Shown here: positions 20,341-46,186 of the stretch, piece after piece
Numbering within the stretch: position 1 is the first letter of the stretch
Layout: each line of letters starts with the position of its first letter
Origin: Candidatus Bipolaricaulota bacterium
GTDB lineage: Bacteria > Bipolaricaulota > Bipolaricaulia > M55B111
Direction of reading: 5' to 3'
Assembly: GCA_021735245.1 (NCBI GenBank)
Contig: JAIPHJ010000004.1
Coordinates: 14,652-78,651, forward strand
Length of the DNA stretch: 64,000 bases
Notes under the pieces: generated by a model
Seen by the model: only the letters and a program-made list of their open reading frames with translations
Database searches by the model: none
What the model was told of the DNA's origin: nothing
Made by a program: the position numbers and the translations under genes

Positions 20341-20522
20341 AAAATATACGACTTTTCGAACGAAGAACAGCCGCAGCTGCTCAAATGGAAGACGGAGGAG
20401 GACTATCACGAAGACATCGGATCGATTACTTACACTCAAACGCGATGAGTTTTACGAGTCGAACGGGTATCCGATCAGGAATAAATACCTAACGGGTCCA
20501 GAATATATCAAAGGTGGTGCAA

Positions 20523-21089
20523 GTGCCCGAACTACCCGACGTAGAAATTTTTAAACGGTATTTCGACTCCTACGGCCTCGATAAGAAGGTCGAGAAGGTG
20601 AAAATTCGGTCGGAGCAGGTACTCGGTAATCTGAGGCCGAAAGGGTTAGGGGCCGCGCTAACGGGAAAGAAATTCAGCTCGAGTTTGAGGCACGGAAAGC
20701 ACCTGCTCGTCTCCACAACCGGGGAGGAGTGGCTGGGGTTCCACTTTGGCATGACCGGTTTCTTTGAATATCTGGATCCTGGAGAAGACCCTGGGGGGCA
20801 TCCGCGAATCTTATTTCAGGCCGGAATCCATCCCCGGGTTGAAGCATCCAATTTATCTCAGGCTAAAATTGGGGATCTCTATGATGAAATGAAGTACGTT
20901 CTTGAGAAAGCAATTGCCCGCGAAGTCGAGGCCGATAGCTTGCCCTCGAACTTTCTTCTCCCGCATCGAACTCCCGGTACGGCCTGCCCACAATGCGGGG
21001 AAAATATTGAAAAAGTCAAGGTATCGGGGCGCAGTGCCTATTTTTGCCCGGCCTGTCAAAGTACTCCTAACTCCGAATCAGACTCTTAG
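20523..21089 (+). CDS. Fpg/Nei-family DNA glycosylase, unusually short (internal segment missing)
   Basis: The GTG at 20523 gives the canonical N-terminus (M)PELPDVE with the catalytic Pro. An H2TH remnant (ILFQAGIHPRVEASNLS) and a C-terminal zinc finger (CPQCGENI...YFCPACQ) are present. The product is only 188 aa, against about 270 aa for typical Fpg. Confidence 0.75.
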   Translation: MPELPDVEIFKRYFDSYGLDKKVEKVKIRSEQVLGNLRPKGLGAALTGKKFSSSLRHGKHLLVSTTGEEWLGFHFGMTGFFEYLDPGEDPGGHPRILFQAGIHPRVEASNLSQAKIGDLYDEMKYVLEKAIAREVEADSLPSNFLLPHRTPGTACPQCGENIEKVKVSGRSAYFCPACQSTPNSESDS

Positions 21090-21236: not shown

Positions 21237-22448
21237 TCAACTATCGTTCTTTAGACTGGAGAGGGCTTTACGTAGTCTGGTTAGGGCCTGCTTTAGGCGG
21301 TCTAACGAGTTGGCGTAGCAGATCCTGAGGTAGCCATCGCCTCCGGGTCCGAAGGCCGTTCCCGGTAAAAGGGCGACCCCGGCTTCTTCCAGGAGGTAAT
21401 CGGCAAGTTCGCTTGAGGTCAAGTCAAAGGAGTCAACTTTCGGAAAAACGTAAAACGCTCCCCCGGAAGTATTGCAGGTTACTCCTTCTATATCATTTAA
21501 TCCCTCGACTACCAGGTCTCGTTTTTTCCTCAACACTTCTCGATTCTTTCGAACCCGATCCTGAGGACCCTCCAGTGCCTCTATTCCGGCGTACTGGGTA
21601 AATGTCGCCGTGCAGCCTACCGAGTGAGTAAGCAAATACCCTATCTTTTCGGCCAGCGGTTCCGGGGTTACGGCAAACCCCAGTCGCCAGCCTGTCATAG
21701 AATAAGTTTTTGAAAAACCGTCTACCATGATGGTTCTCTCTTTCATACCTCCGTAATTCATAATACTCCTGTGATCGTATTCGCCGTAGACTATACGCGA
21801 GTATATCTCGTCGGAAAGGACAAATACGTCTTCCTCCCGGGCCAGCGTAGCTATTCTTTCAAGGCTCTCCGGCGACATTAGATTACCTGCGGGATTTCCC
21901 GGCGAATTTATGAGTATATACTTCGTTCTCGAGTTAACGGAACTTTCCAGTCGATCGATATCCAGCCGAAACCCGTCGTTCTCTATCAGTGGAACCGGAA
22001 TCGGCTTGCCGCCAGCTACCTCTATCATAGATTTGTAGGTGGGAAAACCGGGGTCGGGATATATCACTTCGTCCCCTTCTTCGAGTAGTGCCACTGTCGA
22101 GAAGAAAAGCATCGGCTTGGCTCCGGGCCCCACGGCCACTTCATCAGGAGTAACTCTTACTTCTCTGGTCTCGGAAACGTGATCGGCTATTGCCTCCCGC
22201 AGCTGTGGTATCCCCTGAGACGGGTTGTAGTCGGTCTTGCCCTCGACCAGGGCTCTGATACCGGCAAGGGTTATATTGGGAAAAGTCGGGTAATCGGGCT
22301 GACCTATCTCTAAATGAACGATGTCCTCGCCCTCCTCCTCCAGCTCATTTGCTTTGGCCAGTACCCTGTAAGCACCCTCGGGCTCTAGATCGGCGACGTT
22401 CTGGTTTATTTCTGAGATAATGTTAGACTTAACAGGGAACCCGGTCAT
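21237..22448 (-). CDS. Class I/II PLP-dependent aminotransferase (aspartate aminotransferase-like)
   Basis: 403-aa ORF with NSPGNPAGN and the PLP-lysine motif DGFSKTYSMTGWRLGF. Its ATG overlaps the stop of the upstream MttB gene (ATGA at 22445-22448). Confidence 0.85.
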   Translation of the reverse strand: MTGFPVKSNIISEINQNVADLEPEGAYRVLAKANELEEEGEDIVHLEIGQPDYPTFPNITLAGIRALVEGKTDYNPSQGIPQLREAIADHVSETREVRVTPDEVAVGPGAKPMLFFSTVALLEEGDEVIYPDPGFPTYKSMIEVAGGKPIPVPLIENDGFRLDIDRLESSVNSRTKYILINSPGNPAGNLMSPESLERIATLAREEDVFVLSDEIYSRIVYGEYDHRSIMNYGGMKERTIMVDGFSKTYSMTGWRLGFAVTPEPLAEKIGYLLTHSVGCTATFTQYAGIEALEGPQDRVRKNREVLRKKRDLVVEGLNDIEGVTCNTSGGAFYVFPKVDSFDLTSSELADYLLEEAGVALLPGTAFGPGGDGYLRICYANSLDRLKQALTRLRKALSSLKNDS

Positions 22449-23905
22449 GATCCAACCAGCCCCATAATCTCCTCAACCTTATTTTCATCCAGCTTATCCG
22501 GGTCGTAGTTCTCAATTATGTCTTTTACCTTCTCGTTTAGTCTCTCTTTCGTCGAGGGAGAGCCGGCACTTTCCCATTTTTCTCTCTGGGAACGGTCGAA
22601 AAAGCGCGGTTCCCAGTAATCCCGGAAGTGATTTACCGTCTCCTCTGTTCCAATAAAGTCTCCGCCCGGACCTTCTTCTTCGATTTGATCGAGCAATAAC
22701 GTCGCCTGATTTACGGGTATCCCGGTCATCATGTGTTTGGTCATGTCTATCAGTTCGTCCGATAGTGCGACCATTTCGAGCGAGGCAGCTAACCCCGACT
22801 CCATGTAACCGACATCGTGGATCAGATTTGCCCCACTGAACCGGGCCATAATCACTGACATGGTCGCCTCGGTGGCCGCCTGTTCGTCCATCTCCTTGGC
22901 GTCAGAGCAACCGGCGTAACCCCAGGTCGGTATTCCGTAGTGGCGACCGAGTTCGGCAACTGCCGTCTTGGTCAGCTGGAACTCGGGGGAGCCGTAGCAA
23001 ATCTGCATGTTCTTCATGTCGAAGTGGTGCGGCCCCGCTCCGTATACGAACGGAGCCCCAGGGTTCTCCAGCTGATGCACGACCAGAGCACTCAGTATCT
23101 CCGCGTTACACAGGGCTATTTCTCCTGCCATGTGGATCGGGCCCGTGCTTCCCATCATCGGCGCAGGAGAGTGGACTACCGGCAACTCCGTTTCGGCCAT
23201 CAGTAACAGCTTGTCCAGGGCCGTCTCGCTCTGCTGAAGCGGCGAGGTCGGCTCGGAGTAAAGCAAGAGGTTGGGTCTGCGGCTCAAGTCCTCTCTGGAT
23301 TCTCGCAGCGTCGTTGACATGTCGATAATCGTTTCGAGGTCGTCTCTATCATCACAAACAACGACCGTTGGCTTGGTCGAGTAACGAAGCATGTGAGCGT
23401 ACTGCCACTGGTAATTGGAGACTCCGTCAGGTTTATCCTCGGGCATACCTACGCTCATCAGGAAATCCACGTTATCCAGAGCATCTACGACTCTATAGGC
23501 ATCACAAACATCTTCTGTCTCCCACTTTCTCGTCTCTCCGGTGAAGGGATCGAGATACTTCAGGGTATCAGAACCCGTACCGAAGTAGGTTTCGGTGCCC
23601 TGCAGGTTCATTGCCGGATCGCCACTTCGATCTGTCAGGACAACTCTTCCGGGGGTGGAAGATATAGCCTCCTCGATTAACCCGGGAGGGAATCGAACCA
23701 GGTCTTCCTCGCCTATATAAGCACCGGCTTCGTCCAGGAGCGTCAGTGCACGTTCGTGGTGGAACTTAACTCCGACTCGACGAAGAAGTTCCAGGGTCGT
23801 ATTATGTATATCATCTATCTGGTTATCCGAAAGTAATCTAAACTGTGGCGTGTCTAAACTGGTATGGTTGGAGTTCAGTATTTCAGCGGCTTCGTCTTCT
23901 AGCAT
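22445..23905 (-). CDS. MttB-superfamily methyltransferase, non-pyrrolysine (quaternary-amine type), paralogue 2
   Basis: 486-aa uninterrupted ORF with no in-frame TAG. Family-typical N-terminus (LSDNQIDDIHNTTLELLRRVGV) and core (SPLQQS..., GANLIHDVGYMESG, HFRDYWEPRFFDR). Confidence 0.8.
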   Translation of the reverse strand: MLEDEAAEILNSNHTSLDTPQFRLLSDNQIDDIHNTTLELLRRVGVKFHHERALTLLDEAGAYIGEEDLVRFPPGLIEEAISSTPGRVVLTDRSGDPAMNLQGTETYFGTGSDTLKYLDPFTGETRKWETEDVCDAYRVVDALDNVDFLMSVGMPEDKPDGVSNYQWQYAHMLRYSTKPTVVVCDDRDDLETIIDMSTTLRESREDLSRRPNLLLYSEPTSPLQQSETALDKLLLMAETELPVVHSPAPMMGSTGPIHMAGEIALCNAEILSALVVHQLENPGAPFVYGAGPHHFDMKNMQICYGSPEFQLTKTAVAELGRHYGIPTWGYAGCSDAKEMDEQAATEATMSVIMARFSGANLIHDVGYMESGLAASLEMVALSDELIDMTKHMMTGIPVNQATLLLDQIEEEGPGGDFIGTEETVNHFRDYWEPRFFDRSQREKWESAGSPSTKERLNEKVKDIIENYDPDKLDENKVEEIMGLVGS

Positions 23906-23953
23906 TAAGTGACCTCCTAATGGTTAGATTGTAATCATCAAATAGATCAAAAA

Positions 23954-25405
23954 TCATTCTGACTTTTTCGAGGCAAATTTGCTCTGAATTAGTTCCAGGT
24001 TTTCTTGAGTATCCCGGTTTAAATCAGGAATTCCTTCGTCGCTTTCAAAAAAGTCCGTTATATACTCGTTCGTTCTGTCAAAGAAAGACTCAACATCTTC
24101 AGAACTCTCGTTATTAAACGGGGTTCTGTCTAGAAATCTGGGATACCAGCTATCCTTGAAGTTGTCGAGAGTGTGAGGGTGAGAAACGAACTCCCCTCCG
24201 GGACCTACTTCTTCCAGTAGACCGATCTCTAATTCTTCCGTGGCCCCCACCCCGGCTACCGTATTACGAAGTAGATCGATTACCTCGTCCATTGCCACTA
24301 TCATTTCCGGTATCAATAACTTGGCGCTACCAAATAGCCCGACGTCGTGAATTAGATTTGCACCGGACAAAGTTGCCAGGTAAGCCGAAGAAAGCGCTTC
24401 CAGCACTGCCTGGCCGTCAAAGAGCTTGGAATCACCCGTTCCTGCAGTTCCAAATACGGGAAGCCCGATGTGGTGACCTAGTTCGGCAATTACTGACGAC
24501 ATCACCTGAAGCTCCGGAGCGCCGTAGGAAAAGTTCGCCGTATCCATATCCATCAATGAAGGCATGCCACCCAGGACGAATGCACCGCCGGGATCGATCT
24601 GCTGATGCAGTACCAGCCCAAATAATGATTCAGCGGTAGCCTGAGCGACTGCAGTGGCGAAGTCCTGAGGTGCCGTAGCACCCATAGCCAGAAACGGAGA
24701 ATATAGAAGTGGTATCTCTTTTACCGCACAATACCGAACTTTCCGGACTGAGCTATCTGGGTTAACGAGGGGTGATATCGGTTCGGCGTAATTGACAAAA
24801 AAGGGCTTGTCTTTAAAAGGAGTTTTGGCTTTCGCCCGGGCCATTTGATGGACCGCTTTCAGATCCTCCAGGCTTTCGGTGATTGCAACAAAAGGTTTGT
24901 CCGTGTTTAACAAGCACTGCTTTGTCGAGACTATTTCGGCCATCTGGCTGTCGTGATCTGCCGCAAACCCGGCCGGCATAAGGAAGCTTATATTGGACAG
25001 CCCGTCAACAAGCCTCACTATTCGACCGATATCTTTCTCTCGGCAGTCCTGGTAGTTACCGGAAACGGGGTTGAGCAGGTTGGGTCCGTCTATACTCGCT
25101 CCGAAATAGCTCTTGTCACCTTCAAGCTCGAGCGCCTTTTCTCCCGCCTGGTCGTATAGATTCAGCGAGTTCGGAGTTTTTTCGATCGAATCCTCGACAA
25201 GACTCCTGGGTAAGCGGGCTCTATCTCCTTCGATCCTCGCCCCGGCTCCATCCAGGACCTCTTTTGACTTTTCTTCCGTTAACTTCATTCCGATCTTTTC
25301 CAGGATTTCGTAAGCGCCTGCTTCGATCCTTTCCAGCTCAGCTTCCCCAAGCAGGTTAAACCTCACACCCTCCAGTGGAGAATATCTACTTGACAAAAAA
25401 ACCAC
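23954..25405 (-). CDS. MttB-superfamily methyltransferase, non-pyrrolysine (quaternary-amine type), paralogue 1
   Basis: 483-aa uninterrupted ORF. It has the same architecture as its neighbour (LGEAELERIEAGAYEILEKIGM, GANLIHDVGLFGSA, NFKDSWYPRFLDR) but is clearly divergent from it. A TTG at 25396 with a better SD spacing is an alternative start. Confidence 0.8.
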   Translation of the reverse strand: MVFLSSRYSPLEGVRFNLLGEAELERIEAGAYEILEKIGMKLTEEKSKEVLDGAGARIEGDRARLPRSLVEDSIEKTPNSLNLYDQAGEKALELEGDKSYFGASIDGPNLLNPVSGNYQDCREKDIGRIVRLVDGLSNISFLMPAGFAADHDSQMAEIVSTKQCLLNTDKPFVAITESLEDLKAVHQMARAKAKTPFKDKPFFVNYAEPISPLVNPDSSVRKVRYCAVKEIPLLYSPFLAMGATAPQDFATAVAQATAESLFGLVLHQQIDPGGAFVLGGMPSLMDMDTANFSYGAPELQVMSSVIAELGHHIGLPVFGTAGTGDSKLFDGQAVLEALSSAYLATLSGANLIHDVGLFGSAKLLIPEMIVAMDEVIDLLRNTVAGVGATEELEIGLLEEVGPGGEFVSHPHTLDNFKDSWYPRFLDRTPFNNESSEDVESFFDRTNEYITDFFESDEGIPDLNRDTQENLELIQSKFASKKSE

Positions 25406-25452
25406 CCTCGTAGGTTAGCTGGTTTTAAAAACAACCGTCACGTCTGACGTGA

Positions 25453-26481
25453 CTAAATGGTAAACCCTTCTACAAGAGGATCGCCCGGCGACGTGACAAA
25501 ATAATTCAATCCAGTAATATAAGAAGATCCTGTTACTTTGGGAACTATAACCTGTCGACCGTCGAATGTTTTTTCCTCCACGGCTTCACCTTTAAACTCC
25601 GTATCTATGATGCTTCGGTAACGCTTACCTTCTCCCAGGGCCAGCTCACCGCTGTAGTACTCCCAGGCAATTTGCGAACAGGTACCCGTACCGCAGGGCG
25701 ACCTATCAATTACGGCACCTTCGTGAATTACAACGTTCTTTGAATTTTTCTCCCCCTCGACGAAACGTATTCTCTCCAGAGGTACTCTTCCCGTTTCCGG
25801 GTGCTCGAGCTTGATTTCCTTTCGATCGTTGATCTCTTTCATTATTTCGTGGGCCAGAGAGTTCAATGCATCCAGATTTTGCCGGGTCACGGAAAGCTCC
25901 AGGTCCTCAACTTCCACGATTCCAAAGATATTTCCCCCGTAACTCAGCTCAACACTTACTTCTCCCGGGCCCGGCACCTCCACTTCGACGGCGTCGAAGA
26001 AGTAAGAAGGCGTGCCAAACAAATCGACCCTATCGACCCGGCCGTCCCGATAATGAGCTACCGTCTTTACGGTTCCCGCAGGAGTATCCATAGTAATAAC
26101 GTTTTCCCCCTGATCCACTTCCAAAAGCCCCAGTTCAGATAGAACGGTGGCAACGCCGATAGCACCGTGGCCACACATGTCAGCGTATCCGGCTGGATAA
26201 GGAAATAGGACTCCGATATCCGCGTCATCTTCGGCCGGTTCCATTACTATTGCACCAAACATAGCAGCATGTCCTCGGGGCTCTTTCATCGTCCGTGTCC
26301 TAAGTTGATCCTGGTTTTCCCAAATCCATTTTTGTCGATCTACCATCGTCGGTCGATCTTCCAGCGCCGGGTCGTACCCGTTCAGAATTACCCTAATTGG
26401 TTCTCCGGCCGTGTGGGCATCAACCGCCAGGGCAAAGGACTTCTCCTTTAAGTTGTTCAGAGAGTCTTTAATAGGAATCAT
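25453..26481 (-). CDS. Proline racemase / 4-hydroxyproline epimerase family protein (Cys/Cys catalytic pair)
   Basis: 342-aa ORF. It has both catalytic-Cys motifs of the family: DMCGHGAIGV and DRSPCGTGTCSQ. The second Cys is retained, so it is of the racemase/epimerase type rather than the dehydratase type. Confidence 0.85.
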   Translation of the reverse strand: MIPIKDSLNNLKEKSFALAVDAHTAGEPIRVILNGYDPALEDRPTMVDRQKWIWENQDQLRTRTMKEPRGHAAMFGAIVMEPAEDDADIGVLFPYPAGYADMCGHGAIGVATVLSELGLLEVDQGENVITMDTPAGTVKTVAHYRDGRVDRVDLFGTPSYFFDAVEVEVPGPGEVSVELSYGGNIFGIVEVEDLELSVTRQNLDALNSLAHEIMKEINDRKEIKLEHPETGRVPLERIRFVEGEKNSKNVVIHEGAVIDRSPCGTGTCSQIAWEYYSGELALGEGKRYRSIIDTEFKGEAVEEKTFDGRQVIVPKVTGSSYITGLNYFVTSPGDPLVEGFTI

Positions 26482-26501
26482 TATTTAATATGGACCCCAA
26501 T

Positions 26502-27233
26502 TCATTCGCTTTCCTTTCCCAGTTTTAAGCCTTCCGGAGTTAGTTTTTCCTCTACTTCCGATAGCAGCCAGTCAAGCGTAACTGCCAGGCCTGCCGTCAA
26601 CAGGGCCCCCTGCATCATTAAGGAGACAAAGTTAACTGACTGTCCCCGCATGATTATCTGACCCAGCCCGCCGGCATTTATCAGTGCTGCTATAGCCGCC
26701 GTACCGACACAGAGAATAGTAGAATATCGAATGCCTGACACGATTACAGGTAAAGCCAGAGGTAGTTCGATCTTTTTAAAAATCTGGAGCTTTGACATAC
26801 CCATACCCTTGGCAGATTCTATTACACTTTGATCTATATCTTCTATGCCGACGGTAGCATTGCGCAGCACCGGAAGGAGAGAATAAATAAATAGAGCAAT
26901 TATGCCGGGACGGAAGCCGATACCGAAAAAGGGCGATACTCCAGCAACCAGAGCCAGAGGAGGGATGGCAAGTCCGACGTTTGCTATTCCCGTAACCGGG
27001 GAGGCAAGAAATTTCAGACCCGACCGAGTGATCAGAAGCCCCGCAGTTATACCCACCGTTATGGCCAGGAACTCAGCTATACCGACCAGTTTGATATGTT
27101 CCCACGTTCTCAATAACAAATCCCTGCCGGAGGCCGGATCGTACCATCCCTGAGACCCGTATAACGTATAGTATATCGCCAACCCTACCATGATTATTAT
27201 TAAAATAGACGACATAATCCGCTTTCCTTTCAT
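26502..27233 (-). CDS. Betaine/choline-type ABC transporter permease (OpuCD/OpuBD-like)
   Basis: Polytopic BPD-type permease with an EAA-like loop (IESAKGMGMSKLQIFKKIELPLALP). ATGA overlap with the upstream permease gene. Confidence 0.82.
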   Translation of the reverse strand: MKGKRIMSSILIIIMVGLAIYYTLYGSQGWYDPASGRDLLLRTWEHIKLVGIAEFLAITVGITAGLLITRSGLKFLASPVTGIANVGLAIPPLALVAGVSPFFGIGFRPGIIALFIYSLLPVLRNATVGIEDIDQSVIESAKGMGMSKLQIFKKIELPLALPVIVSGIRYSTILCVGTAAIAALINAGGLGQIIMRGQSVNFVSLMMQGALLTAGLAVTLDWLLSEVEEKLTPEGLKLGKESE

Positions 27234-27916
27234 CTTCCCCCTCCCTTGGACCTCCAGTTAAGTTTTTGTTCGACCCTTCCCGATAGCCAGTCCAGGACAA
27301 TCGCGAGAACGCTGGAAAATATCGCTCCTGTAAGGATCAAGTCGACCCTCAAATTCCTAATACCCCGGAATATTGGAATTCCAAGCCCGCCACCGCCCAC
27401 GAAGACAGCTAGAGCGGCTATACCCACGCTCATGACAATGGCGTTTCTCAACCCTGCCATTATCACCGGAAACGCCAGAGGTAATTTGACTCTGTAAAGT
27501 ATCTCGCGATGAGACATTCCCATCCCTCTGCCGGCCTCAATGATCTCCGGACTAACTTCTTTAATGGCCGTGTAAGTGTTTTCGATGATCGGCATCTGGG
27601 CGTAAAGAACCAGAGCGATGATCGCCGGGACTATACCCACGCTCTGGACACCTGGTACGGCTCCCAGCAAGGGTATCATCATGGTGTAAAGAGCCAAACT
27701 CGGGATGGTAAGCATGATTTCGGCCAGATTCACCACTACGTTTGCAATTTCTTCCCTACCCTCACCCGCAATATAGACCCCGATACTAACGCCGAGTACC
27801 GTGGCAATACCGGCAGCGATTCCGACCATTATAAGGTGTTCGATAATCCACTTTGTAATCAGGGGCCAATGAGATCCAATGTACCGCCACGTCGAGCTAA
27901 ATATTTTTTCTTCCAT
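27230..27916 (-). CDS. Betaine/choline-type ABC transporter permease (OpuCB/OpuBB-like)
   Basis: Polytopic permease with the EAA loop IEAGRGMGMSHREILYRVKLPLAFP. Confidence 0.82.
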   Translation of the reverse strand: MEEKIFSSTWRYIGSHWPLITKWIIEHLIMVGIAAGIATVLGVSIGVYIAGEGREEIANVVVNLAEIMLTIPSLALYTMMIPLLGAVPGVQSVGIVPAIIALVLYAQMPIIENTYTAIKEVSPEIIEAGRGMGMSHREILYRVKLPLAFPVIMAGLRNAIVMSVGIAALAVFVGGGGLGIPIFRGIRNLRVDLILTGAIFSSVLAIVLDWLSGRVEQKLNWRSKGGGR

Positions 27917-27984
27917 AGTATTTCCTCTTGGCTGACAAGTCGAGCTACCCCGGTTTTACCCGGGGTAGCGACAATTAAGGCTGA

Positions 27985-28956
27985 TTAACCTTCTATCAGG
28001 CCGTGTTCCACCAGGAATTCTTTCGCTACTTCATTCGGGTCCTTCGGTGGATCGGAAAGGTCGGCCTCGTGGTTCATTTCCATCATGGCTTTTCTGGCTG
28101 ACGGGTATTCAGCACTACCGCCCAGCATCTCGGGTTGCGGGAATGCTCCGGCCAGTTCCACCAGCAGGTCCTTGATTTCCGGGTATTCTTCCAAAGTGTC
28201 CGTGCGAACTACGGGGAAAAGGTTGTACGGCGGCCAGAATCCTTTATCGTCCTTTAGCACTTTCAACCCCATAGCTTTGGCGTGCGGGTCGGTTCCGTAA
28301 ATCATCCCGACGGTCGCGTTACCCTGATCCACCTGGCGCATGGTTAGGCCGATCGACATCAACTGCAGCTTGTTTTGCTTGACTTCAAATCCGTACGTTT
28401 CCTGCAAAGCGGGTAGGCCATCCGGTCTCTCGTAGAATTCGTTCCCTACCGCCCATTTAACCTGCTGTTCGTTATTGATATAGTCGGCGAGATCCGAAAT
28501 TGTGTGAACGTCATTTTTCTCCGCCCATTCTACATCTACGCAGAGAGCCCAGGTATTGTTGACGTAAAGACCTTTTTCAGTTATCCAGGTTAGTCCATTC
28601 GGTTTATCCAGCACCTTCAACGCCCAGGGAAAAGCGTACCACGGAACCCGTCCTTCACCTTTGTAAGCTCTACCGAGATAGGTCGTGTAGGCTGTCCCGT
28701 CGTAAGACATCATGATATCTATGTCTCCTGATTCCACGCCGGCTCTCAGGGTCGGGCTGGGTAGATTCTTCTTCATCTGGACAGTAAAGCCTCTGTCTTC
28801 AAGTAGAAGCTTGACCATCCATCCGACGATCCACTGTTCAGTGAAGTCCTTCGTACCGACAGTAATCTTACCTTTGGACTGAGCTGCGGCCCCTATTACG
28901 GCAAAAGAGGCAAGAATCAACGAGAATATCAACAGAAAAGCAAATGTCTTTTTCAA
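27985..28956 (-). CDS. Glycine betaine/choline-family substrate-binding protein (OpuAC fold), secreted
   Basis: Signal peptide MKKTFAFLLIFSLILASFAVIGAAAQ. ITVGTKDFTEQWIVGWM and an aromatic-rich pocket pattern are typical of OpuBC/OpuCC-type binding proteins. Confidence 0.8.
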   Translation of the reverse strand: MKKTFAFLLIFSLILASFAVIGAAAQSKGKITVGTKDFTEQWIVGWMVKLLLEDRGFTVQMKKNLPSPTLRAGVESGDIDIMMSYDGTAYTTYLGRAYKGEGRVPWYAFPWALKVLDKPNGLTWITEKGLYVNNTWALCVDVEWAEKNDVHTISDLADYINNEQQVKWAVGNEFYERPDGLPALQETYGFEVKQNKLQLMSIGLTMRQVDQGNATVGMIYGTDPHAKAMGLKVLKDDKGFWPPYNLFPVVRTDTLEEYPEIKDLLVELAGAFPQPEMLGGSAEYPSARKAMMEMNHEADLSDPPKDPNEVAKEFLVEHGLIEG

Positions 28957-29018
28957 TTTATTAACCCTCCTTAGAGAATTAGGAATTCGGTTAAACCAAA
29001 TAAGATTTAACTACAGAA

Positions 29019-30152
29019 TCAACTTCCAACCTGCCTACCACCTCCTTCTTCGGTATAGGTTTCACCGATTACCTCCTGAAGGTCGTTAAAGGTAAGAATG
29101 CCTTCCAGTTTGTTGTCTTTACCAAGCACGGGAATATTTGCAACGTCTTCTTCCAACATCACGGACAGCGCATCGGAAAGAGCCGTTTCACGGCTGACCG
29201 ACCCTACGTCCTTGCTCAATACTTCATCTACCGAACCCACGTCTCCTTCCAGGTCCTGGGCCCTGATCCATCCCCTGAACCGGTTCGATCCGTCGGTAAC
29301 TATAAGGTAATCTACCTCGTTCTCTTTCATCTTTTTCTGGATTACACTTACCTCACTATCCAACCTGACAGTCTTCGGAGAAGGTTTCATTGCATCTTTC
29401 GCCCGCATCAACCGCATGCTCTTAAGAGTTCGGTCCGTGCCGACGAAGTCCCGAACGAACTGGTTCTTGGGACGAGCAAGCAATTCGGCCGGCGACGAGT
29501 ACTGAACTAATTCCCCGACCTTCAAGAGGGCGATTTTCGTTCCCATTTTGATCGCTTCATTTATGTCGTGAGTCACGAACACGATGGTCTTTTGAATCTC
29601 TTCCTGAATTTTAAGAAATTCGTCCTGTAGATTGTCTCTCGTAATCGGATCGATAGCTCCAAATGGCTCGTCCATCAACATTATCGGGGGATTGGCGCCA
29701 AGAGACCGGGCCACTCCGACTCTCTGTCTTTGTCCCCCGGATAGCTCGACCGGATATTTATCCAGATGCTCGCTGGGATCCATCCCCATAAGCTCCAGCA
29801 GTTCGTCAGCCCTGTTTCTCGCTTCACTCTTGGACCAGCCTTTGAGTTTGGGAACTGTAGCGATGTTTTCGGCTACTGTCATGTGAGGAAAAAGTCCAAT
29901 CTCCTGAATTGCGTAACCGATATCCCTCCGAAGCTCATTCTCATCGAGCTCCTGGTTGTCCGTGCCGTCTATGTATATCTTGCCTTCGGTTATTGGAATC
30001 AACCGATTGATCATCTTCATTGTGGTCGTCTTGCCACAACCCGAGGGGCCGAGAAGCACACAAAGCTCCCCTTCTTTTATTTCGAGATTGACGCTATTAA
30101 CGGCCTCCGTGCCATCAGGATAGACTTTTGAAACGTTCTCCAGCTTAATCAT
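29019..30152 (-). CDS. Betaine/osmoprotectant ABC transporter ATP-binding protein with tandem CBS domains
   Basis: Walker A GPSGCGKTT, signature LSGGQRQRVGVARSL and Walker B IMLMDEPFGAIDP. A C-terminal region of about 120 aa is CBS-pair-like (OpuCA/OpuAA type). Confidence 0.88.
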   Translation of the reverse strand: MIKLENVSKVYPDGTEAVNSVNLEIKEGELCVLLGPSGCGKTTTMKMINRLIPITEGKIYIDGTDNQELDENELRRDIGYAIQEIGLFPHMTVAENIATVPKLKGWSKSEARNRADELLELMGMDPSEHLDKYPVELSGGQRQRVGVARSLGANPPIMLMDEPFGAIDPITRDNLQDEFLKIQEEIQKTIVFVTHDINEAIKMGTKIALLKVGELVQYSSPAELLARPKNQFVRDFVGTDRTLKSMRLMRAKDAMKPSPKTVRLDSEVSVIQKKMKENEVDYLIVTDGSNRFRGWIRAQDLEGDVGSVDEVLSKDVGSVSRETALSDALSVMLEEDVANIPVLGKDNKLEGILTFNDLQEVIGETYTEEGGGRQVGS

Positions 30153-30184
30153 TCTTTACCACCATTAGATTGAGACCTCCCTCC

Positions 30185-30895
30185 TTAAGCCTTCTCGCCG
30201 TGAACCTCGGTAAATCGTTCTCTCAAGTAATCCAGATGATCGCTAACTTCTTTCTTCATTTTCTCGGCATCCCCTACCAGAAAGGCTCGGGCAAGTCTTT
30301 CGTGTTCCCGACAGTCTCTTTCCGGTGGGATCAGAGCTTGTTTGGCTTTAGAAACAATTAAGGGCAACAACAGCTCCATGACCCGGACGGCCATAGAATT
30401 GTGAGACGCCCTGGCAAGCTCTACATGAATCTGAGTAGTATAATTGATTAACTCCTCTCCCCGCTCCAGCGCCTCCTGCATCTCCTTTACAGCAAGTTTT
30501 ACCCTTTGAATATTCTCCTCTGTTGCCCTCCGTATAGCCATTACACCTATTTGTTTTTCGAGAACTTCTCTCAACTCAACCATGTCGTAGAAGTCCTCTT
30601 CCTCGAGTACAAGATCAAATAAAAGAGAGTTCTCCAGAGGTAAGGAGTAATTATCTCTGACGTAATAACCTTTTCCCGCGTGAGATTCCAGGACCCCAAG
30701 AGCCACCAACGCGTGCAATGCTTCCCGAATCGAAGACCTACCGACGTCAAATCTCTCCCGAAGCTCCTTCTCCGAAGGCAACTTCTCCCCGGGACAAAGC
30801 CCTCCTTCCCTTATATCGGAAGAAATTTCTTCTATTATCTGTTGAGTGATTGTCTTTTTACTGCTACCGAAGGAAACCGGGCTTCTTTTTTTCAT
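30185..30895 (-). CDS. GntR/FadR-family transcriptional regulator
   Basis: Winged HTH KLPSEKELRERFDVGRSSIREALHALVALGVLES plus an all-helical FCD-like C-terminal domain. I prefer the start at the ATG at 30895 (MKKRSPVS..., GGTGAT SD). The ORF-track start at 30943 lies inside a direct repeat. Confidence 0.85.
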   Translation of the reverse strand: MKKRSPVSFGSSKKTITQQIIEEISSDIREGGLCPGEKLPSEKELRERFDVGRSSIREALHALVALGVLESHAGKGYYVRDNYSLPLENSLLFDLVLEEEDFYDMVELREVLEKQIGVMAIRRATEENIQRVKLAVKEMQEALERGEELINYTTQIHVELARASHNSMAVRVMELLLPLIVSKAKQALIPPERDCREHERLARAFLVGDAEKMKKEVSDHLDYLRERFTEVHGEKA

Positions 30896-30919
30896 AAGGA
30901 CATCACCATCCCGCCTTTT

Positions 30920-30965
30920 CCTATCATACCTGTTTCCTATCATACCTGTTTGATAGGTTGTACAA
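30920..30965. promoter_or_regulatory. Candidate operator: 16-bp direct repeat x2 plus dyads upstream of the GntR gene
   Basis: cctatcatacctgttt occurs at 30920-30935 and 30936-30951. It is followed by gatagg (inverted relative to cctatc) and the perfect palindrome TTGTACAA (30958-30965). Confidence 0.5.
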
Positions 30966-31296
30966 GATGCATTATAGAATTTTTATTCCCCCACTTCAAG
31001 GATTCAGACTACTTGGTCCAGAAATTGGTCCATCCGCCAATGGGTGAGAGATCCAAGCTGGTCAGTCAACTTCACCGGGGTCGGTCGTCGCAAAATTTTG
31101 ACCAATAAAGACCAAAATCATCGCTTAAAAGTCTTTCAAAATCTTATTCTTTCGTCTTAAGGGCAGATCACCTATTCTTGTTTTAGGGTAAAACAGAAAA
31201 CTTTTGCTAATTTTGATCGGATTATGGTAGACTCTGGAAGTCTTTTTACTCGGGAACGTCTGGTTTCGATAAATCCTGAGCTCCAAGGGAGGAAAA

Positions 31297-35048: not shown

Positions 35049-36404
35049 CTACTGCTCTCTTATCTTTCTCCCTTTTCGATAAACAGGTCCATACATTTCG
35101 CCGTCACGGATCAAACAACCCGCTTCTACCCCGTCACTCATCATCTGAGAGCAGGCGTCACACGCTATACAGAGATTTTCTTCGTTCAGACCGTCGTCGG
35201 TCAAGATTTCCCGGGCAAACGAGGGGTTGGCAAGAGCGAGTCTCGCAGCTCCCATAACATCAATCGCACCTTCTTTCATGAAGGCCGCAGCCCCGTTCGG
35301 AAAAAATTCTCTAAGCCAGGATATTCCCCCGCCCACTTTTAGTAAACCGGGAAATTCTTCTCCGATCTCAGCCGTCACATCAAAGTTTGTGGAGATAGCC
35401 TCCAGTGGGTCTCGGTCCGGTAATTCTTGTCCGGCCAAAGACCTGTCGAAGGGCTGTTCCAGGAAAGAATCGTAGAAAGGATTACCCAGGGCGACGTTCA
35501 GGATTTCCAGCCCTCCTTCCCGTAACTCTTCCAGTAACCGAATCGGGTCCGTTAGATCGGGGCTGACATCAACGGACTTAGACACACCCCAGCCATCCGG
35601 GTAGGGAACGTCGTCGTAGACGCTCAGGCGACAGGCAAGGATCATTCCGGGCTTTTTACTTTTTACCTCGCTGATTACGCCTTTTAGAAGTTGAATCCTG
35701 TTCTCAACCGGACCCCGATACTTACTGCTCGAGTTTTCGTAAGAAAAAAGCAATTCGTGAATTAAACTACCGTGACAGGCTTTAACATCCACCGCGTCAA
35801 ACCCCGCTCGAGCCGCGAGTTCAGCAGCGTTAATGAAATCCCGTTTGATCTTCGCAAGGTCCTCGTCGGAAACTACCGGGTAATCCGGAGCAATATCGAA
35901 TTCTTCGTCTAATAATTCCGAATGTTTGGCAATTACCGGCTCGACCTCTCCTTCAGGGGCCGAATTTCGCCCGGCGTGGGTTAACTGTAGCACGGTCAAG
36001 GGCCCGTCTCCGTCTCCGTGATATTTCCGAGCAGCTTTTTTTATCTCCCTGTTTAACTGAGCAAACCCGGGGACGGACTCCTCCGACAGACACAATTGCC
36101 CGGGGTGAGACTTTCCCTTTTCAGTAACCGCCGTAGCTTCAAGCCATATGATACCCGCTCCGCCTTCGGCGTATCTTCGATACCTTCTGAAAGTTAAAGC
36201 GCTCGGCCCGCCGTTCGCATCAGCATCGTGTCCCTCCATAGGATTCAGACATAACGAATTTGGTATTACCTTACCCCCAACCTCCACTTGCTCGCTCAGT
36301 AGATCAACGTCGTCACAAAGCGGCAAAGAGTAACTTTTTCTCTTAATTTCCTGCCTTAGTTCGGACAAGTTTTCGTAATCGAATCTTCTCTTATTCTTCG
36401 CCAA
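35049..36404 (-). CDS. Old-yellow-enzyme-like NADH:flavin oxidoreductase with C-terminal Cys motif
   Basis: 451-aa ORF. OYE-type TIM-barrel motifs (GAGIIWLEATAV, HAGRN, GFDAVDVKACHGSLIHELL) and a C-terminal CIACDACSQ...GC cluster. Confidence 0.78.
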   Translation of the reverse strand: MAKNKRRFDYENLSELRQEIKRKSYSLPLCDDVDLLSEQVEVGGKVIPNSLCLNPMEGHDADANGGPSALTFRRYRRYAEGGAGIIWLEATAVTEKGKSHPGQLCLSEESVPGFAQLNREIKKAARKYHGDGDGPLTVLQLTHAGRNSAPEGEVEPVIAKHSELLDEEFDIAPDYPVVSDEDLAKIKRDFINAAELAARAGFDAVDVKACHGSLIHELLFSYENSSSKYRGPVENRIQLLKGVISEVKSKKPGMILACRLSVYDDVPYPDGWGVSKSVDVSPDLTDPIRLLEELREGGLEILNVALGNPFYDSFLEQPFDRSLAGQELPDRDPLEAISTNFDVTAEIGEEFPGLLKVGGGISWLREFFPNGAAAFMKEGAIDVMGAARLALANPSFAREILTDDGLNEENLCIACDACSQMMSDGVEAGCLIRDGEMYGPVYRKGRKIREQ

Positions 36405-36836
36405 TTTGATCCCCCAAAGTATGTTTAGGCCTTATTTTCAAAAACTCACTTTTCTGTCTTCTATAGCCTCCACCTCTTCCGCCCACCCTGCACTATTTAA
36501 CCCACATCCACATTTATCCAGTTTGTCCTTTCAGGAGTCATCTAGAACCAGCTCCTCCCGGCTACAGGAGACTTTTCTAAAAATCATACTACCCTTTTTG
36601 GCACAATAATTAAAGGAATCAAGTTTAATCGGCACACTGATAACTTTCCGAAAGCCAAACCCAAACTTTATTTACTGCGACCTGAATCCCGAATTAAAGT
36701 GGTTTAAAATCAACCATTGAAAACACTTTAATGGTATAAAGATAATAAGGCGGAATTTATAATATAGAATACGTTTGGATTAGGCCTGGTAAGTTTCAGG
36801 AATGTAAAATTTATTGATTACATCAGGTGCTTAAAG

Positions 36837-37412
36837 ATGAATATTGTCCTCGCCTCAAGTTCAAAATTTAGAAGACAGGCTCTTGACCTGTTGGAGATCG
36901 ATTATGAGGTAATTCCCAGCGAAATCGATGAAAAATCCATAAGAGATAATGATCCTAAGATGTTAGCCAGGAAGCTGGCAGAGGCAAAAAGTAAAGACGT
37001 GGGGAAAAGACTTAAAGGGGATAATTTAGTTATAGCAGGTGACTTATTCATTCTGTTTCGAGGCACTATTTACGAGAAGCCGGGGACCGAAGAGGAAGCT
37101 ATAGAGATGTTGAATGCTTTTTCCGGCAATCAGCTGGAGATAATTTCCGGCGTGTCGGTATTCGACACCGGGTCAAACGATTTGGAATCGGCCCTGGGGC
37201 ATACAGAGATAGTTTTTCGAAATATTAGTAAAAAAGAAATTGAGAGATACGTCTCCGATTATCCGGTGCTTGAACTGGCCGGTGCTTTCGAAAAAGAAGG
37301 AGTTTTGAAGTTTTCCGAAGAAGTCCACGGGGACCTGTCATTTTTAACTGGTTTACCTTTAAACAAGCTAATCCAATTGCTTCAAAATAACGGATTCCGG
37401 TTTTTGGAATGA
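36837..37412 (+). CDS. maf: Maf-like nucleoside-triphosphate pyrophosphatase
   Basis: 191-aa ORF with IVLASSSKFRRQALDLL, EKPGTEEEA and the GAFEKEG pattern typical of Maf/YhdE. Confidence 0.85.
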   Translation: MNIVLASSSKFRRQALDLLEIDYEVIPSEIDEKSIRDNDPKMLARKLAEAKSKDVGKRLKGDNLVIAGDLFILFRGTIYEKPGTEEEAIEMLNAFSGNQLEIISGVSVFDTGSNDLESALGHTEIVFRNISKKEIERYVSDYPVLELAGAFEKEGVLKFSEEVHGDLSFLTGLPLNKLIQLLQNNGFRFLE

Positions 37413-37714
37413 TGGAGCGGAGAACCTCTTATTCTCTATATCGATCTTAAATTTAGGTCCAGGTCGGCCCCCGGTTCCGGGCTGTTCTAAGTAGTTCCCC
37501 CACATTTTCCTAAATTTGAAATCCTCCAGGGACTGAGCCACGGTACCTTCTCTGGAATTTTGACTCCTGAAATTTAGGTTGCTAGGTGGTTTAAAGTAGG
37601 AATATTCCGCCTCAAATACCCGCGCCTGATTGAGCAACTTTATATTCAAATATGAGACCAGACGCCAGTAAAAATATTTTTGTTAGTGTCCGATATTAGG
37701 GAAAGAAAGATGGG

Positions 37715-37790
37715 TGGTGGAGGCGACCGGATTCGAACCGGTAACCTCCTGAGTGCAAATCAGGCGCTCTTCCGTTAGAGCTACGCCCCC
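37715..37790 (-). tRNA. tRNA-Ala (anticodon UGC), CCA encoded
   Basis: The reverse complement reads GGGGGCGTAGCTCTAACGGAAGAGCGCCTGATTTGCACTCAGGAGGTTACCGGTTCGAATCCGGTCGCCTCCACCA. The acceptor stem is 7 bp and has the G3:U70 alanine identity pair. The anticodon stem is CCTGA/TCAGG with loop TTTGCAC. The T-loop is GGTTCGAATCC. Confidence 0.93.
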
Positions 37791-38047
37791 ATGGATAATT
37801 CCCATTGATCCGGGTACAGCTAATTTGCTCTCTTTCAAAAAAGGCAAAGTATACGCCTGCTTATTTATCAGACGCTCGGATTCCTTTATTTGTGAATCTC
37901 CTTTTTCTGATATAAATACTATTCAGTAGCTTGTAACATTTCAATCCTTAACGGGCTTTTAAGGTTCGTCTCGGACCCGGATTAGATCTTTTCATCAAAA
38001 CTATCAGCGTTCCCAAGGAGGTACGTTTGCTTAAATTTGTTGTAATT

Positions 38048-38072
38048 CCCTGTTTCAGTTTCAGAAACAGGG
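38048..38072. repeat. Perfect 9-bp inverted repeat in the tRNA-integrase spacer
   Basis: ccctgtttc (38048-38056), loop agtttca, then gaaacaggg (38064-38072). There is no adjacent U-tract. Function unknown. Confidence 0.4.
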
Positions 38073-38506
38073 TGTCAAATCCTATTACCCCATTGTCACA
38101 TGCCGGGCTGTGGCCAAAGAGGAAAACCAGTCAGGGTCGATTCCTTGGTCAATTCGGATAATCCTTCTTTTAGCCTGGTTCCAATATTTTCTACCTCACC
38201 GTTTGTTTCGGGTATCATGACAAAAATTCATCTCCTCCCGGAGGCGGAAGGCAAATATTTTGGTCAGATTTTCGTTTTTTCGTTCAACCAAGCTATCTCC
38301 TCGGAAATTATCTAAACTACCCCCATTTCTCCTCGAGAGAGCTTAAAATTGCTTTAAACCTACCGGCATGGGTTACCGTTTTCGTGCAGGCCCTCATGCC
38401 AACTAGCCAGATAGTCTGGCCTTTTCGTACTGACGGAATCATCCTCTAGAAAGACTATATCAAAAACTATTTCGACTCGTTTCTAATATGAAATAATTCG
38501 TACTTC

Positions 38507-38535
38507 TTGACTTAACGGATATTAAACAATATAAT
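38507..38535 (+). promoter_or_regulatory. Near-consensus sigma70-type promoter upstream of the recombinase gene
   Basis: TTGACT (38507-38512), an exact 17-nt spacer, then TATAAT (38530-38535). It lies 55 nt upstream of the ATG at 38591. Confidence 0.5.
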
Positions 38536-38590
38536 TATGTTGTTACGAAATTACAACTTATTAATCTAATAGTTACAAAGGTCCCGTAAA

Positions 38591-39142
38591 ATGAATAAAC
38601 GAGAGATCAACAGATTAGACAGAAAAGAGTTTGAGTTGCTATGGGAGGCAGCGGTCGAAGGTGACCCCCTGGATCGGCTCATATTTGTTTGTGCGGGCCA
38701 TTTGGGAATGAGGGCTTCGGAAATTGCCCACCTGAAAAAAGACTGGATAGACTTTCAGAGTGGAACGGTCGAAGTTCCTAAGGAGGACGGGGAATTCCAG
38801 GCAAACGGGAGTTCTCGGTCTATTCCATTCAAACACCTTCGAGACAGGGTAGCTACAGAACTAAGAAGATATTTTGACTACAACTGGGTTGTAGGGGTCA
38901 ACAGGGCAACGATTTTTAGGCGGGTAAAAAATATGGCTCAGCGGGCTGATTTAACCCATAAGGTCCACCCACAGGCTTTAAGATCGACCTGTGCTTTCCA
39001 ACTAGCCGAAGCAGGGGTAAATGCTCAAGGATTGAGGCAGTTTATGGGCTGGAAGGAATTAAATACGGCCCAGAAGTATATTGAAGAGGTTGGAGTGGAT
39101 GCTAAAAAGCAGATAAAGAGGAACAAGGATAAGCTCTGGTAA
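38591..39142 (+). mobile_element. Minimal tyrosine recombinase / integrase (catalytic domain only, 183 aa)
   Basis: Catalytic-domain residues are in the expected order: R in HLGMRASEI, H-x-x-R in HPQALRSTCAF, and the terminal nucleophile Tyr in MGWKELNTAQKYI. There is no N-terminal core-binding domain. Confidence 0.75.
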
Positions 39143-39214
39143 GGGAACTTTTTTGCTGGGATCAGCAGACGATATGAAATTGACTGGACGTCGGGTTAGT
39201 AAAAGGAAAAGCAA

Positions 39215-40753: not shown

Positions 40754-40893
40754 AGCTTTAAAGAAATAAGGGGAAATACGGGTTGCTAATTTTGTAAATA
40801 AAAACTGGTTCACTGTCTAAAGTAAAATTGAAATAGTTGTTGTATCAAATGGATACGCTAGAAACATTCTACTAAAAAGTAGAGGAGGAGCAA

Positions 40894-42003: not shown

Positions 42004-42101
42004 CCTCTTCAGATGCTCTTACAGGGCGGAGCATTAGCTTCGCCCTATTCAATCACAAAATCATCTGAAATAATATTTTAGCTTATATAAAGAGGAAGGT
42101 C

Positions 42102-43548: not shown

Positions 43549-43570
43549 CGATTAATAAAGGAGAATAAGC

Positions 43571-46030: not shown

Positions 46031-46186
46031 TAAAAATGCCAAAAACCAGGAAGGAAAATCTTCAAGTCAATACGGTTTTTGCTGACGAAAGGTCCGTGGC
46101 AGGGCTTATATTTCCAGATCATTCCCGTAACCATTGAGGCTAACCCAGCAAAAAAGTATGAATTTGCCAGTGAGGGGGATAAATAA
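46031..46186 (+). pseudogene. In-frame relic of the CotH C-terminal repeat module behind a TAA-TAA double stop
   Basis: The same frame as CotH continues after TAATAA as KCQKPGRKIFKSIRFLLTKGPWQGLYFQIIPVTIEANPAKKYEFASEGDK. This resembles the W-G-x-YF...PVT-x-x-A-x-P...Y-x-F tail found on many CotH proteins. Confidence 0.4.

Follow-up and report, generated by a model that had tools for sequence, protein, structure and literature searches.

The DNA considered here is a 64,000-nt stretch (the window) of contig JAIPHJ010000004.1 from Candidatus Bipolaricaulota bacterium, and the subject of this analysis is a locus at positions 21237-30943 that combines two MttB-superfamily methyltransferases with an importer of the betaine type. 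The locus consists of nine tightly packed open reading frames (ORFs), all on the minus strand. In the direction of transcription these encode a GntR regulator, the ATPase, the substrate-binding protein and two permeases of an ATP-binding cassette (ABC) importer, a proline-racemase homolog, the two MttB homologs (MttB-A and MttB-B) and an aminotransferase. Domains of the window proteins were assigned by Pfam and NCBIfam profile searches with the family cut-offs. The gaps between successive genes are 32, 62, 68, -4, 20, 47, 48 and -4 nt, and the two ATGA overlaps were read directly at 27230-27233 (the permease pair) and 22445-22448 (MttB-B and the aminotransferase). The coordinates agree with the first-pass annotation of this DNA, which had described nine co-directional genes with tiny gaps and two such overlaps.

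MttB-A (23954-25405, minus strand) and MttB-B (22445-23905, minus strand) matched PF06253 with 233 and 297 bits, respectively, against a cut-off of 25, and covered profile positions 15-471 and 16-480, which places both in the MttB superfamily. The two proteins are 34.6% identical and neither ORF contains an in-frame TAG codon, consistent with their initial description as two clearly different paralogs of the non-pyrrolysine kind. The column occupied by pyrrolysine (Pyl) in the archaeal enzyme holds Thr323 (ACG) in MttB-A and Cys333 (UGC) in MttB-B, the latter aligning exactly with Pyl334 of 7XCL. AlphaFold2 (AF2) models of both proteins adopt the TIM-barrel fold of MttB and MtgB, characterized by template modeling (TM) scores of 0.84-0.90 to 9YCE, 2QNE and 7XCL. 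The MttB-A model has a mean predicted local distance difference test (pLDDT) score of 88.5 and Foldseek TM scores of 0.87-0.90 to MtgB and MttB; the MttB-B model has a pLDDT of 86.7 and a TM score of 0.88 to MttB. The Rfam model PYLIS_3 matched MttB-A at 24340-24439 (minus strand, 38.6 bits; gathering score 38) and MttB-B at 22810-22910 (minus strand, 25 bits). We rejected these matches as Pyl insertion elements, since position 1 of the model falls on the Thr or Cys codon and several base pairs are broken, which points to homology of the coding sequences.

We mapped the MttB residues by alignment to MtgB from Desulfitobacterium hafniense (2QNE/9YCE) and to Pyl-MttB from Methanosarcina barkeri (7XCL). 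The glycine-betaine site of MtgB is formed by Y97, R312, H348 and F356, among which R312 is conserved in MtcB, MtpB, MthB and MtyB and binds the acidic group (PMC13080624). The equivalent residues are I105, F318, H353 and A361 in MttB-A, giving the signature I105/F318/T323/H353/A361 when the Pyl column is included, and S112, W328, H363 and G371 in MttB-B. Just one of the four glycine-betaine residues, H348, is kept in either protein, and the arginine is replaced by Phe318 in MttB-A and by Trp328 in MttB-B, so that both lack a residue that every characterized non-Pyl member retains. MtgB is the top sequence match in the Protein Data Bank (PDB; 211 bits for MttB-B and 145 bits for MttB-A) and shares the fold (TM 0.84-0.88), but Y97, R312 and F356 are replaced in both window proteins and the identity is only 24-28%. 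Because the binding motif is replaced except for the histidine, the alignment supports the conclusion that neither protein is a glycine-betaine enzyme of the MtgB type. The close match to glycine-betaine enzymes that would have spoken against the first-pass annotation was therefore not seen.

MttB-B resembles Pyl-MttB more closely than MttB-A does. Against the Pyl-MttB equivalog model TIGR02369, MttB-B scored 397 bits and MttB-A 255 bits, both below the cut-off of 525. MttB-B contains the Gly-Thr of an FGTG motif, which MttB-A lacks; the corresponding peptide in MttB (Gly110-Thr111) contacts and hydrogen-bonds the corrin ring (PMC9842639). Further features shared by MttB-B and Pyl-MttB are an aromatic residue at the R312 position, a glycine at the F356 position, an xSDAK motif with the cysteine standing in the Pyl334 column, and the fold (TM 0.88). 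Both would also act on a non-quaternary amine, if the role proposed for MttB-B below is right. MttB-B differs from Pyl-MttB in the absence of UAG and pyrrolysine, in the replacement of Tyr364 by His363, in its TIGR02369 score, and in the presence of an invariant set of residues, H245, H277, H293, H294 and C303, that MttB does not have.

These residues define a larger group. The clade to which MttB-B belongs (B-type) comprises hundreds of sequences from Bipolaricaulota, Anaerolineae and other Chloroflexota. Its W...C...H...G signature is found in 120 of the 120 best database homologs of MttB-B and in all 93 B-type sequences of the related loci that we fetched. The H245/H277/H293/H294/C303 set is common to the B-type homologs and absent from MtgB, Pyl-MttB and every other MttB type in the same loci. 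The MttB-B model has three low-confidence loops, two of which (249-252 and approximately 291-300) lie at these histidine and cysteine residues. B-type proteins from very different neighborhoods are about 75% identical, nearly as similar as those within one neighborhood. Of 31 loci that extend 1.6 kb or more to each side of the B-type gene, 15 have no second MttB beside it. One recurrent set (L081, L087 and L089) consists of an aminotransferase, a pterin-binding methyltransferase 2 (MT2), a Liv-type ABC importer, the B-type MttB, an SMP-30-like protein and a corrinoid protein. L094 combines a Liv-type importer, the B-type MttB, a corrinoid protein and a fusion of dihydrodipicolinate synthase (DHDPS) with formaldehyde-activating enzyme (Fae), and L059 has a Liv-type importer, the B-type MttB and a racemase homolog without an A-type gene. 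A corrinoid protein is encoded in 25 of the 93 non-redundant related loci. By context, the B-type MttB is likely to be a self-sufficient corrinoid-dependent methyltransferase with a substrate that is imported like an amino acid.

Other neighbors of the B-type genes were recorded as well. A gene for an SMP-30/gluconolactonase-like beta-propeller directly follows the B-type MttB in nine loci (L081, L087, L089, L059, L044, L064, L078, L093 and L029). The fusion in L094 (10276-11739), a DHDPS-family aldolase joined to an Fae domain, stands right after the B-type MttB and the corrinoid protein, and occurs also in L060. In L007, L050, L057, L065 and L069, the B-type protein is recurrently paired with an MttB of the P-M-A-H-A type. 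The L007 pair is flanked by a molybdenum hydroxylase, an MmgE/PrpD protein, a methylaspartate-ammonia-lyase-like protein, a ferredoxin-like protein and an amidohydrolase. This set is reminiscent of nicotinate fermentation, and an N-methylated heteroaromatic such as trigonelline as the substrate would be pure speculation.

The racemase homolog (25453-26481, minus strand) scored 285 bits against PF05544 (cut-off 27) and belongs to this family, keeping the CGH histidine, the DRSPC aspartate and, as had been annotated, both catalytic cysteines (C103 in MCGHG and C263 in DRSPCGTG). Its scores against the NCBIfam models for proline racemase (NF010576, 279 bits, cut-off 556) and 4-hydroxyproline epimerase (NF010578, 223 bits, cut-off 376) are below both cut-offs. 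The racemases of related loci reach 330-409 bits with the proline-racemase model, again below 556, and all racemases considered here (279-409 bits) score best against that model. The window protein is approximately 39% identical to AsProR (7PB3).

MttB-A represents a family of 29 sequences (A-type) that are 40-92% identical to it and share the signature x-F-T-H-A. Every A-type gene adjoins a B-type gene, and this includes 10 of 10 loci with room from A-seeded searches, which are unbiased towards B. All 23 of the 23 loci with room have a Cys/Cys racemase homolog beside the A-type gene, and the five exceptions end less than 700 nt from A, whereas among approximately 63 loci without an A-type gene the racemase homolog occurs in L059 alone. 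Two arrangements are found. The order racemase-A-B is seen in Bipolaricaulota and in the L004/L024 group, with the racemase clade mark YADMCGH...VIHEG.VIDRSPCGTG (A100 and H253 in the window protein). The order B-A-racemase is seen in an Anaerolineae-type group, with the clade mark YEPMCGH...VILGDHMVDRSPCGTG. Identity between the racemases of the two clades is only 36-38% and does not exceed that of either clade to ProR of Acetoanaerobium sticklandii. Because the association holds across an inverted gene order and two racemase clades, it provides strong evidence that the racemase is functionally tied to the A-type MttB. The metabolic link between racemase and MttB that had been suspected at the outset thus has its counterpart in a conserved adjacency, and we regard this association as the best pointer to a pyrrolidine-type substrate.

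In the Anaerolineae-type clusters L099, L100, L070, L086, L090 and L040-L042, a third MttB type (S-F-S/M-H-G) lies upstream of the B-A-racemase-aminotransferase genes. Also upstream of these genes, the same clusters contain a pyridoxal phosphate (PLP) enzyme of the Cys/Met metabolism family, which is methionine gamma-lyase-like with scores below the cut-offs, and they face an Opp-like ABC importer.

The last gene of the locus encodes a class I PLP aminotransferase resembling aspartate aminotransferases (AspATs; 21237-22448, minus strand; PF00155, 231 bits), coupled to MttB-B by the ATGA overlap. Its closest solved relatives are 1DJU and 1GD9 from Pyrococcus horikoshii, followed by bacterial AspATs. 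K247 is the PLP lysine, and in the alignment K111 falls on the GGKQ lysine of 6F77 and 1J32, both bona fide AspATs. The best equivalog score, obtained in the test for aspartate aminotransferase (class I, subgroup Ib/gamma), was 332 against a cut-off of 550. Orthologs (at least 480 bits) are found near the B-type MttB in 21 of the 93 loci, often directly downstream of it, and 10 of these 21 loci have neither an A-type gene nor a racemase. Because the orthologs follow B even where A and the racemase are absent, the gene context assigns the aminotransferase to MttB-B, not to the racemase. In ten loci (L004, L008, L014, L020, L022, L024, L041, L045, L052 and L098), a gene that passes the equivalog cut-off of ketopantoate hydroxymethyltransferase (PanB) lies beside the corrinoid protein or the aminotransferase; the window does not contain one. 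It may be an ordinary PanB or may be connected with the pathway via methylene-THF. We considered this PanB-like gene as a novel methylcorrinoid:tetrahydrofolate (THF) methyltransferase, but no such claim is possible, as the PanB cut-off is passed (325 against 208).

The importer consists of an OpuCA/ProV-type ATPase (29019-30152), an OpuAC-family binding protein (27985-28956; PF04069, 170 bits) and two BPD_transp_1 permeases (27230-27916, PF00528, 91 bits; 26502-27233, PF00528, 76 bits), all on the minus strand. The ATPase passes the ProV-subfamily cut-off (TIGR01186, 376 bits against 326.6) and has a tandem CBS pair, seen as two CBS stretches. The closest solved relatives of the binding protein are OpuCC from Bacillus subtilis (3PPN) and ProX from Archaeoglobus fulgidus, at approximately 120 bits each. 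Inspection of the alignment showed that all four OpuCC cage positions, which we take to be Y71, Y117, Y197 and Y221 since a constant offset fits the alignment, are aromatic in the binding protein (Y85, W136, Y220 and Y244). The subfamily assignment of the ATPase, the CBS pair, the caged binding protein and the two permeases identify an importer of the OpuC/ProU type, and the first-pass annotation of a betaine-type importer with CBS domains holds. The aromatic cage indicates that the imported substrate is likely to carry a fully methylated "onium" head group. The system resembles OpuC and OpuB of B. subtilis in its CBS-pair ATPase, two permeases, separate OpuAC-type binding protein and four-residue cage. 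It differs from them in the low scores of the binding protein to OpuCC and ProX, and in its position inside a catabolic operon under a GntR regulator, not under osmotic control alone. The Anaerolineae-type clusters have an Opp-like ABC system facing them instead of an OpuC-type importer; the Prb proline-betaine importer of Sinorhizobium is also said to be Opp-like.

The first gene encodes a regulator of the GntR/FadR subfamily (30185-30943, minus strand), with an N-terminal GntR winged helix (PF00392, 70 bits) and a C-terminal FCD domain (PF07729, 63 bits). Upstream of it, the top promoter match in the region is a sigma-70-type promoter, TTGAAG-17 nt-TATAAT (30971-30999, minus strand, 10 of 12 consensus positions), whose -35 CTTG and -10 TATAAT align across nine related loci. 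Just downstream lies a TATCA-N8-TGATA tandem made of copies of the palindrome TATCAAACAGGTATGATA (30922-30955, minus strand). Among the non-coding sequences ahead of GntR it is the best conserved in these nine loci, and it is a candidate operator for the GntR protein. A second palindrome, TTGTACAA, after the -10 element was ruled out as an operator, as it is kept in no relative. The start of the longest GntR ORF, at 30943, falls within the conserved tandem palindrome, and a ribosome-binding site (GGTGA) followed by ATG at 30895 (M17), 48 nt downstream of 30943, is conserved in the relatives. Thus, the true start is probably the ATG at 30895, giving a protein of 236 residues instead of 252. Between the racemase and MttB-A genes, a 7-bp GC-containing hairpin followed by GGTTGTTTTT (25437-25453, minus strand) starts at the racemase stop codon. 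Among the relatives, just the closest one has it, in degenerate form, so that a role as regulatory terminator is improbable. The numbers of terminators and promoters predicted in the region equal the shuffle expectation, and nothing in the sequence appears to speak against a single transcript for the nine genes.

The closest relatives of the locus are found in metagenome-assembled genomes of Candidatus Bipolaricaulota (Acetothermia), the top one being JAGXLB010000121 with 90% nucleotide and 87-97% amino-acid identity. The order GntR-ATPase-binding protein-two permeases-racemase-MttB-A-MttB-B is retained in L011, L013, L014, L019, L020, L021 and L101, and the same order from GntR to MttB-B is found in L010, L012 and L015 as far as the contigs extend. 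Overall, at least eight related Bipolaricaulota genomes or metagenome contigs share this order, at 63-97% amino-acid identity; the absence of such synteny would have counted against the first-pass annotation. The transporter proteins and MttB-B of the Bipolaricaulota relatives are 79-93% identical to those of the window, and the racemase and MttB-A only 63-70%. Within Bipolaricaulota, MttB-B is therefore the slower-evolving methyltransferase (79-85% against 63-70% identity for MttB-A). The aminotransferase is downstream in most relatives, with a third MttB in its place in L001 and hom/asd/ask genes in L014. The shared gene order, together with the conserved promoter and candidate operator ahead of GntR, supports the nine genes as one regulated unit, in agreement with the single operon under GntR that had been proposed.

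The first-pass annotation had pointed out that the locus has no gene for a corrinoid protein, an MT2 or an activase, and this absence extends to the whole 64-kb window. A Pfam scan of all window ORFs of at least 150 residues revealed no B12-binding, pterin-binding or activase genes, and tblastn with two corrinoid proteins against the window gave no match for a corrinoid protein (E > 0.05). Outside Bipolaricaulota, an MtgC/MttC-like corrinoid protein adjoins orthologous A/B/racemase clusters in L004, L024, L041, L045, L047 and L073. In Eubacterium limosum, the genes for MtpB, MtcB and MtyB each stand away from those for the shared MtqC, MtqA and RamQ (PMC8604678). The absence of a corrinoid protein from the locus is thus expected and not anomalous, given the separate partner genes of E. 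limosum. Both explanations had been offered at the outset, partners supplied in trans or a different chemistry. The corrinoid genes of the relatives and the E. limosum precedent make supply of the corrinoid partner in trans the most likely explanation, and the gene context makes different chemistry improbable.

Our best reading of the locus, which we hold tentatively and with slightly less than even confidence, is that of a substrate-inducible operon of a halophile-type (salt-lake-type) Bipolaricaulota bacterium for the uptake and demethylation of a proline-type betaine, in which MttB-A removes the quaternary and MttB-B the tertiary methyl group. The substrate would be an osmolyte of the quaternary ammonium type built on pyrrolidine-2-carboxylate, with proline betaine as the most likely candidate. 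The first-pass annotation had likewise suggested a proline-derived betaine, either stachydrine or hydroxyproline betaine. In this scheme, the GntR/FadR protein would act as a repressor on the tandem palindrome just downstream of the promoter, and the betaine would be imported by the OpuC-type system through its caged binding protein and CBS-domain ATPase. MttB-A, which has no activating residue at the pyrrolysine position, would pass the first methyl group of the quaternary amine, which is already cationic, to a corrinoid protein in the Co(I) state. A quaternary amine needs no activation, and MttB-A has no special residues. A tertiary amine needs activation, for which MttB-B would offer the cysteine in place of pyrrolysine and its private His/Cys set when it removes a methyl group from the resulting tertiary N-methyl amino acid. 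The racemase homolog may convert the proline-type product or intermediate between its L and D forms, and the AspAT-like enzyme may pass the released nitrogen and carbon to central metabolism. The corrinoid protein, the methylcorrinoid:THF methyltransferase and the reductive activase would be encoded elsewhere in the genome, with the methyl groups entering one-carbon metabolism.

To our knowledge, the characterized non-Pyl MttB enzymes remove only the first methyl group of a quaternary amine. How anaerobes without pyrrolysine demethylate tertiary and secondary amines such as dimethylglycine, sarcosine and N-methylproline is the question that this locus addresses. For glycine betaine, stepwise demethylation by several MttB paralogs has been proposed on physiological grounds with the second-step enzyme unassigned, and the same proteomics study of DCMF explicitly calls the methyltransferase for dimethylglycine unclear (PMC9768040). 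The locus supplies candidates, with a substrate-specific A-type enzyme locked to a generic Cys-for-Pyl B-type enzyme that has an invariant His/Cys set. The racemase homolog points to the substrate class, and the importer and the regulator with its candidate operator complete the genetic design. As a wider and more doubtful proposal, the whole B-type clade might demethylate tertiary or secondary N-methyl amino acids independently of pyrrolysine, with the His/Cys constellation taking the place of that residue. H245, H277, H293, H294, C303 and C333 would then activate the non-quaternary amine for attack by Co(I), possibly through a metal site like the zinc site of MtaB. If true, pairing of B-type enzymes with partners such as MttB-A would allow complete anaerobic demethylation of betaines, here from proline betaine to proline.

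One of the closest described systems is the MtpB-MtqC-MtqA-RamQ system of E. limosum. It likewise relies on a non-Pyl MttB-superfamily methyltransferase that acts on a quaternary amine under anoxic conditions, probably of the same substrate class, and the methyltransferase gene lies apart from those for the shared corrinoid protein, MT2 and activase (PMC8604678). The two systems differ in that MtpB keeps Arg312 (PMC13080624) where MttB-A has Phe318 and MttB-B Trp328, a comparison made at the published arginine position only. E. limosum further uses one MttB per substrate, whereas the window operon joins two MttB proteins with a racemase homolog, an importer and an aminotransferase. The E. limosum system reportedly stops at N-methylproline. 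Aerobic catabolism of proline betaine and hydroxyproline betaine in Paracoccus and Rhodobacter involves the HpbD racemase together with Rieske and flavin demethylases. This pathway resembles the proposed one in that the betaine is imported, a 2-epimerase or racemase takes part, two N-methyl groups are removed in succession and the substrate controls transcription. Its racemase belongs to the enolase superfamily and its demethylases are oxygen-dependent, whereas the window operon has a racemase of the Cys/Cys ProR family and corrinoid-type MttB homologs suited to anoxic life. The route had been thought undescribed for anaerobic MttB systems, and our search of the literature on MttB together with proline racemase, N-methylproline, zinc and Bipolaricaulota found no description of the arrangement. 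We thus found no prior description of the A-racemase-B module or of the Cys-for-Pyl clade, all parts of which come from known families.

Several observations weigh against proline betaine as the substrate. MtpB conserves R312 where MttB-A has a phenylalanine, so that proline betaine, if used, would be bound differently; neither proline dehydrogenase nor D-proline reductase was seen in any locus; and the clusters of some relatives contain three or four MttB genes. The identity of about 75% among B-type proteins across contexts agrees better with one shared substrate, or with a structural role, than with tertiary amines that differ from one context to the next. The chief observation left unexplained by the proline-betaine scheme is that the aminotransferase tracks B and is coupled to it by the ATGA overlap, which suggests a product of B with a primary amine, and proline has none. 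This would be accounted for if the substrate were an acyclic N-methylated alpha-amino acid or its betaine, from which B yields a primary amino acid, possibly aspartate or glutamate, for the aminotransferase, with the racemase homolog acting on an N-methyl (secondary-amine, proline-like) intermediate. The aminotransferase orthologs in B-type loci without A or racemase, the lysine aligned with that of the GGKQ motif in bacterial AspATs and the Liv-type amino-acid importers of solo B-type loci are consistent with such a substrate, as are the departures of both racemase clades from canonical ProR beside the catalytic motifs (L to A or E, and F to H or L). We nevertheless consider it unlikely, as all racemase homologs score best as proline racemases and keep the CGH histidine and the DRSPC aspartate, and as a quaternary betaine with three methyl groups requires a third demethylation for which the window encodes no enzyme. 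Moreover, we know of no described member of the proline-racemase family that acts on anything other than pyrrolidine rings. In another rival reading, A and B would join in one heteromeric methyltransferase and take off a single methyl group, with the variable A binding the substrate and the conserved B acting as its dimer partner and docking the corrinoid protein. In the MttB-MttC crystal structure, each corrinoid protein contacts both subunits of the MttB dimer, and the dimerization loop of the partner stabilizes the catalytic pair (PMC9842639). A-type proteins are never found without an adjoining B-type protein, B stays about 75% identical whatever its partner and evolves more slowly than A in Bipolaricaulota, and other variable MttB types, such as P-M-A-H-A, also stand beside B-type proteins. 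An obligate A:B heteromer is weakened by the 15 of 31 well-flanked loci in which a B-type gene has no second MttB and has its own corrinoid protein and MT2, indicating self-sufficiency. A pure scaffold would also have no need for the invariant, active-site-like His/Cys set, and we regard the heteromer, too, as improbable.

Two further explanations are much less probable than these. That the MttB homologs carry out some other, corrinoid-independent chemistry might be suspected from the lack of a B12-binding gene in the 64 kb and from residue motifs that match no characterized member in either protein. It is very unlikely in view of the corrinoid protein genes beside the six orthologous A/B clusters named above and in 25 of the 93 related loci, of the full set of methyltransferase 1 (MT1), corrinoid protein and pterin-binding MT2 around solo B-type genes, and of the Gly-Thr in B that hydrogen-bonds the corrin ring in MttB (PMC9842639), and partners in trans are documented in E. 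limosum (PMC8604678). An ordinary locus for glycine-betaine uptake and demethylation of the MtgB type with unrelated neighbors is, in our view, least plausible of all. The ATPase does pass the cut-off of the betaine/proline/choline ProV subfamily, the binding protein is of the OpuAC family, and one distant homolog of A is named "Glycine betaine methyltransferase" in its source. However, only H348 of the experimentally defined binding residues is present in either MttB, at 24-28% identity to MtgB, and the strict association of A with the racemase over two gene orders is no chance neighborhood. The proline-type betaine operon stays the reading that we favor.

The nine-gene locus is flanked by unrelated housekeeping genes, namely a trp operon, a truncated fpg, and genes for rubrerythrin, a major facilitator superfamily (MFS) transporter and an amidohydrolase. 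The formamidopyrimidine-DNA glycosylase (fpg) ORF at the edge of the operon (20514-21089, plus strand) is only 191 residues long with a partial H2TH domain, and a 76-residue fragment lies at the same place in L001, so this gene may be decaying. Farther along, the segment at 36000-46100 may be an integrated island. It contains a tRNA-Ala gene (37715-37790, minus strand), after which come a short phage-integrase-family ORF (38591-39142) and a block of reduced G+C content (43-45% against approximately 50%) with genes for a GT2 glycosyltransferase, a GH113 protein, a VTC-domain protein, a DUF4956 protein and a large CotH protein.

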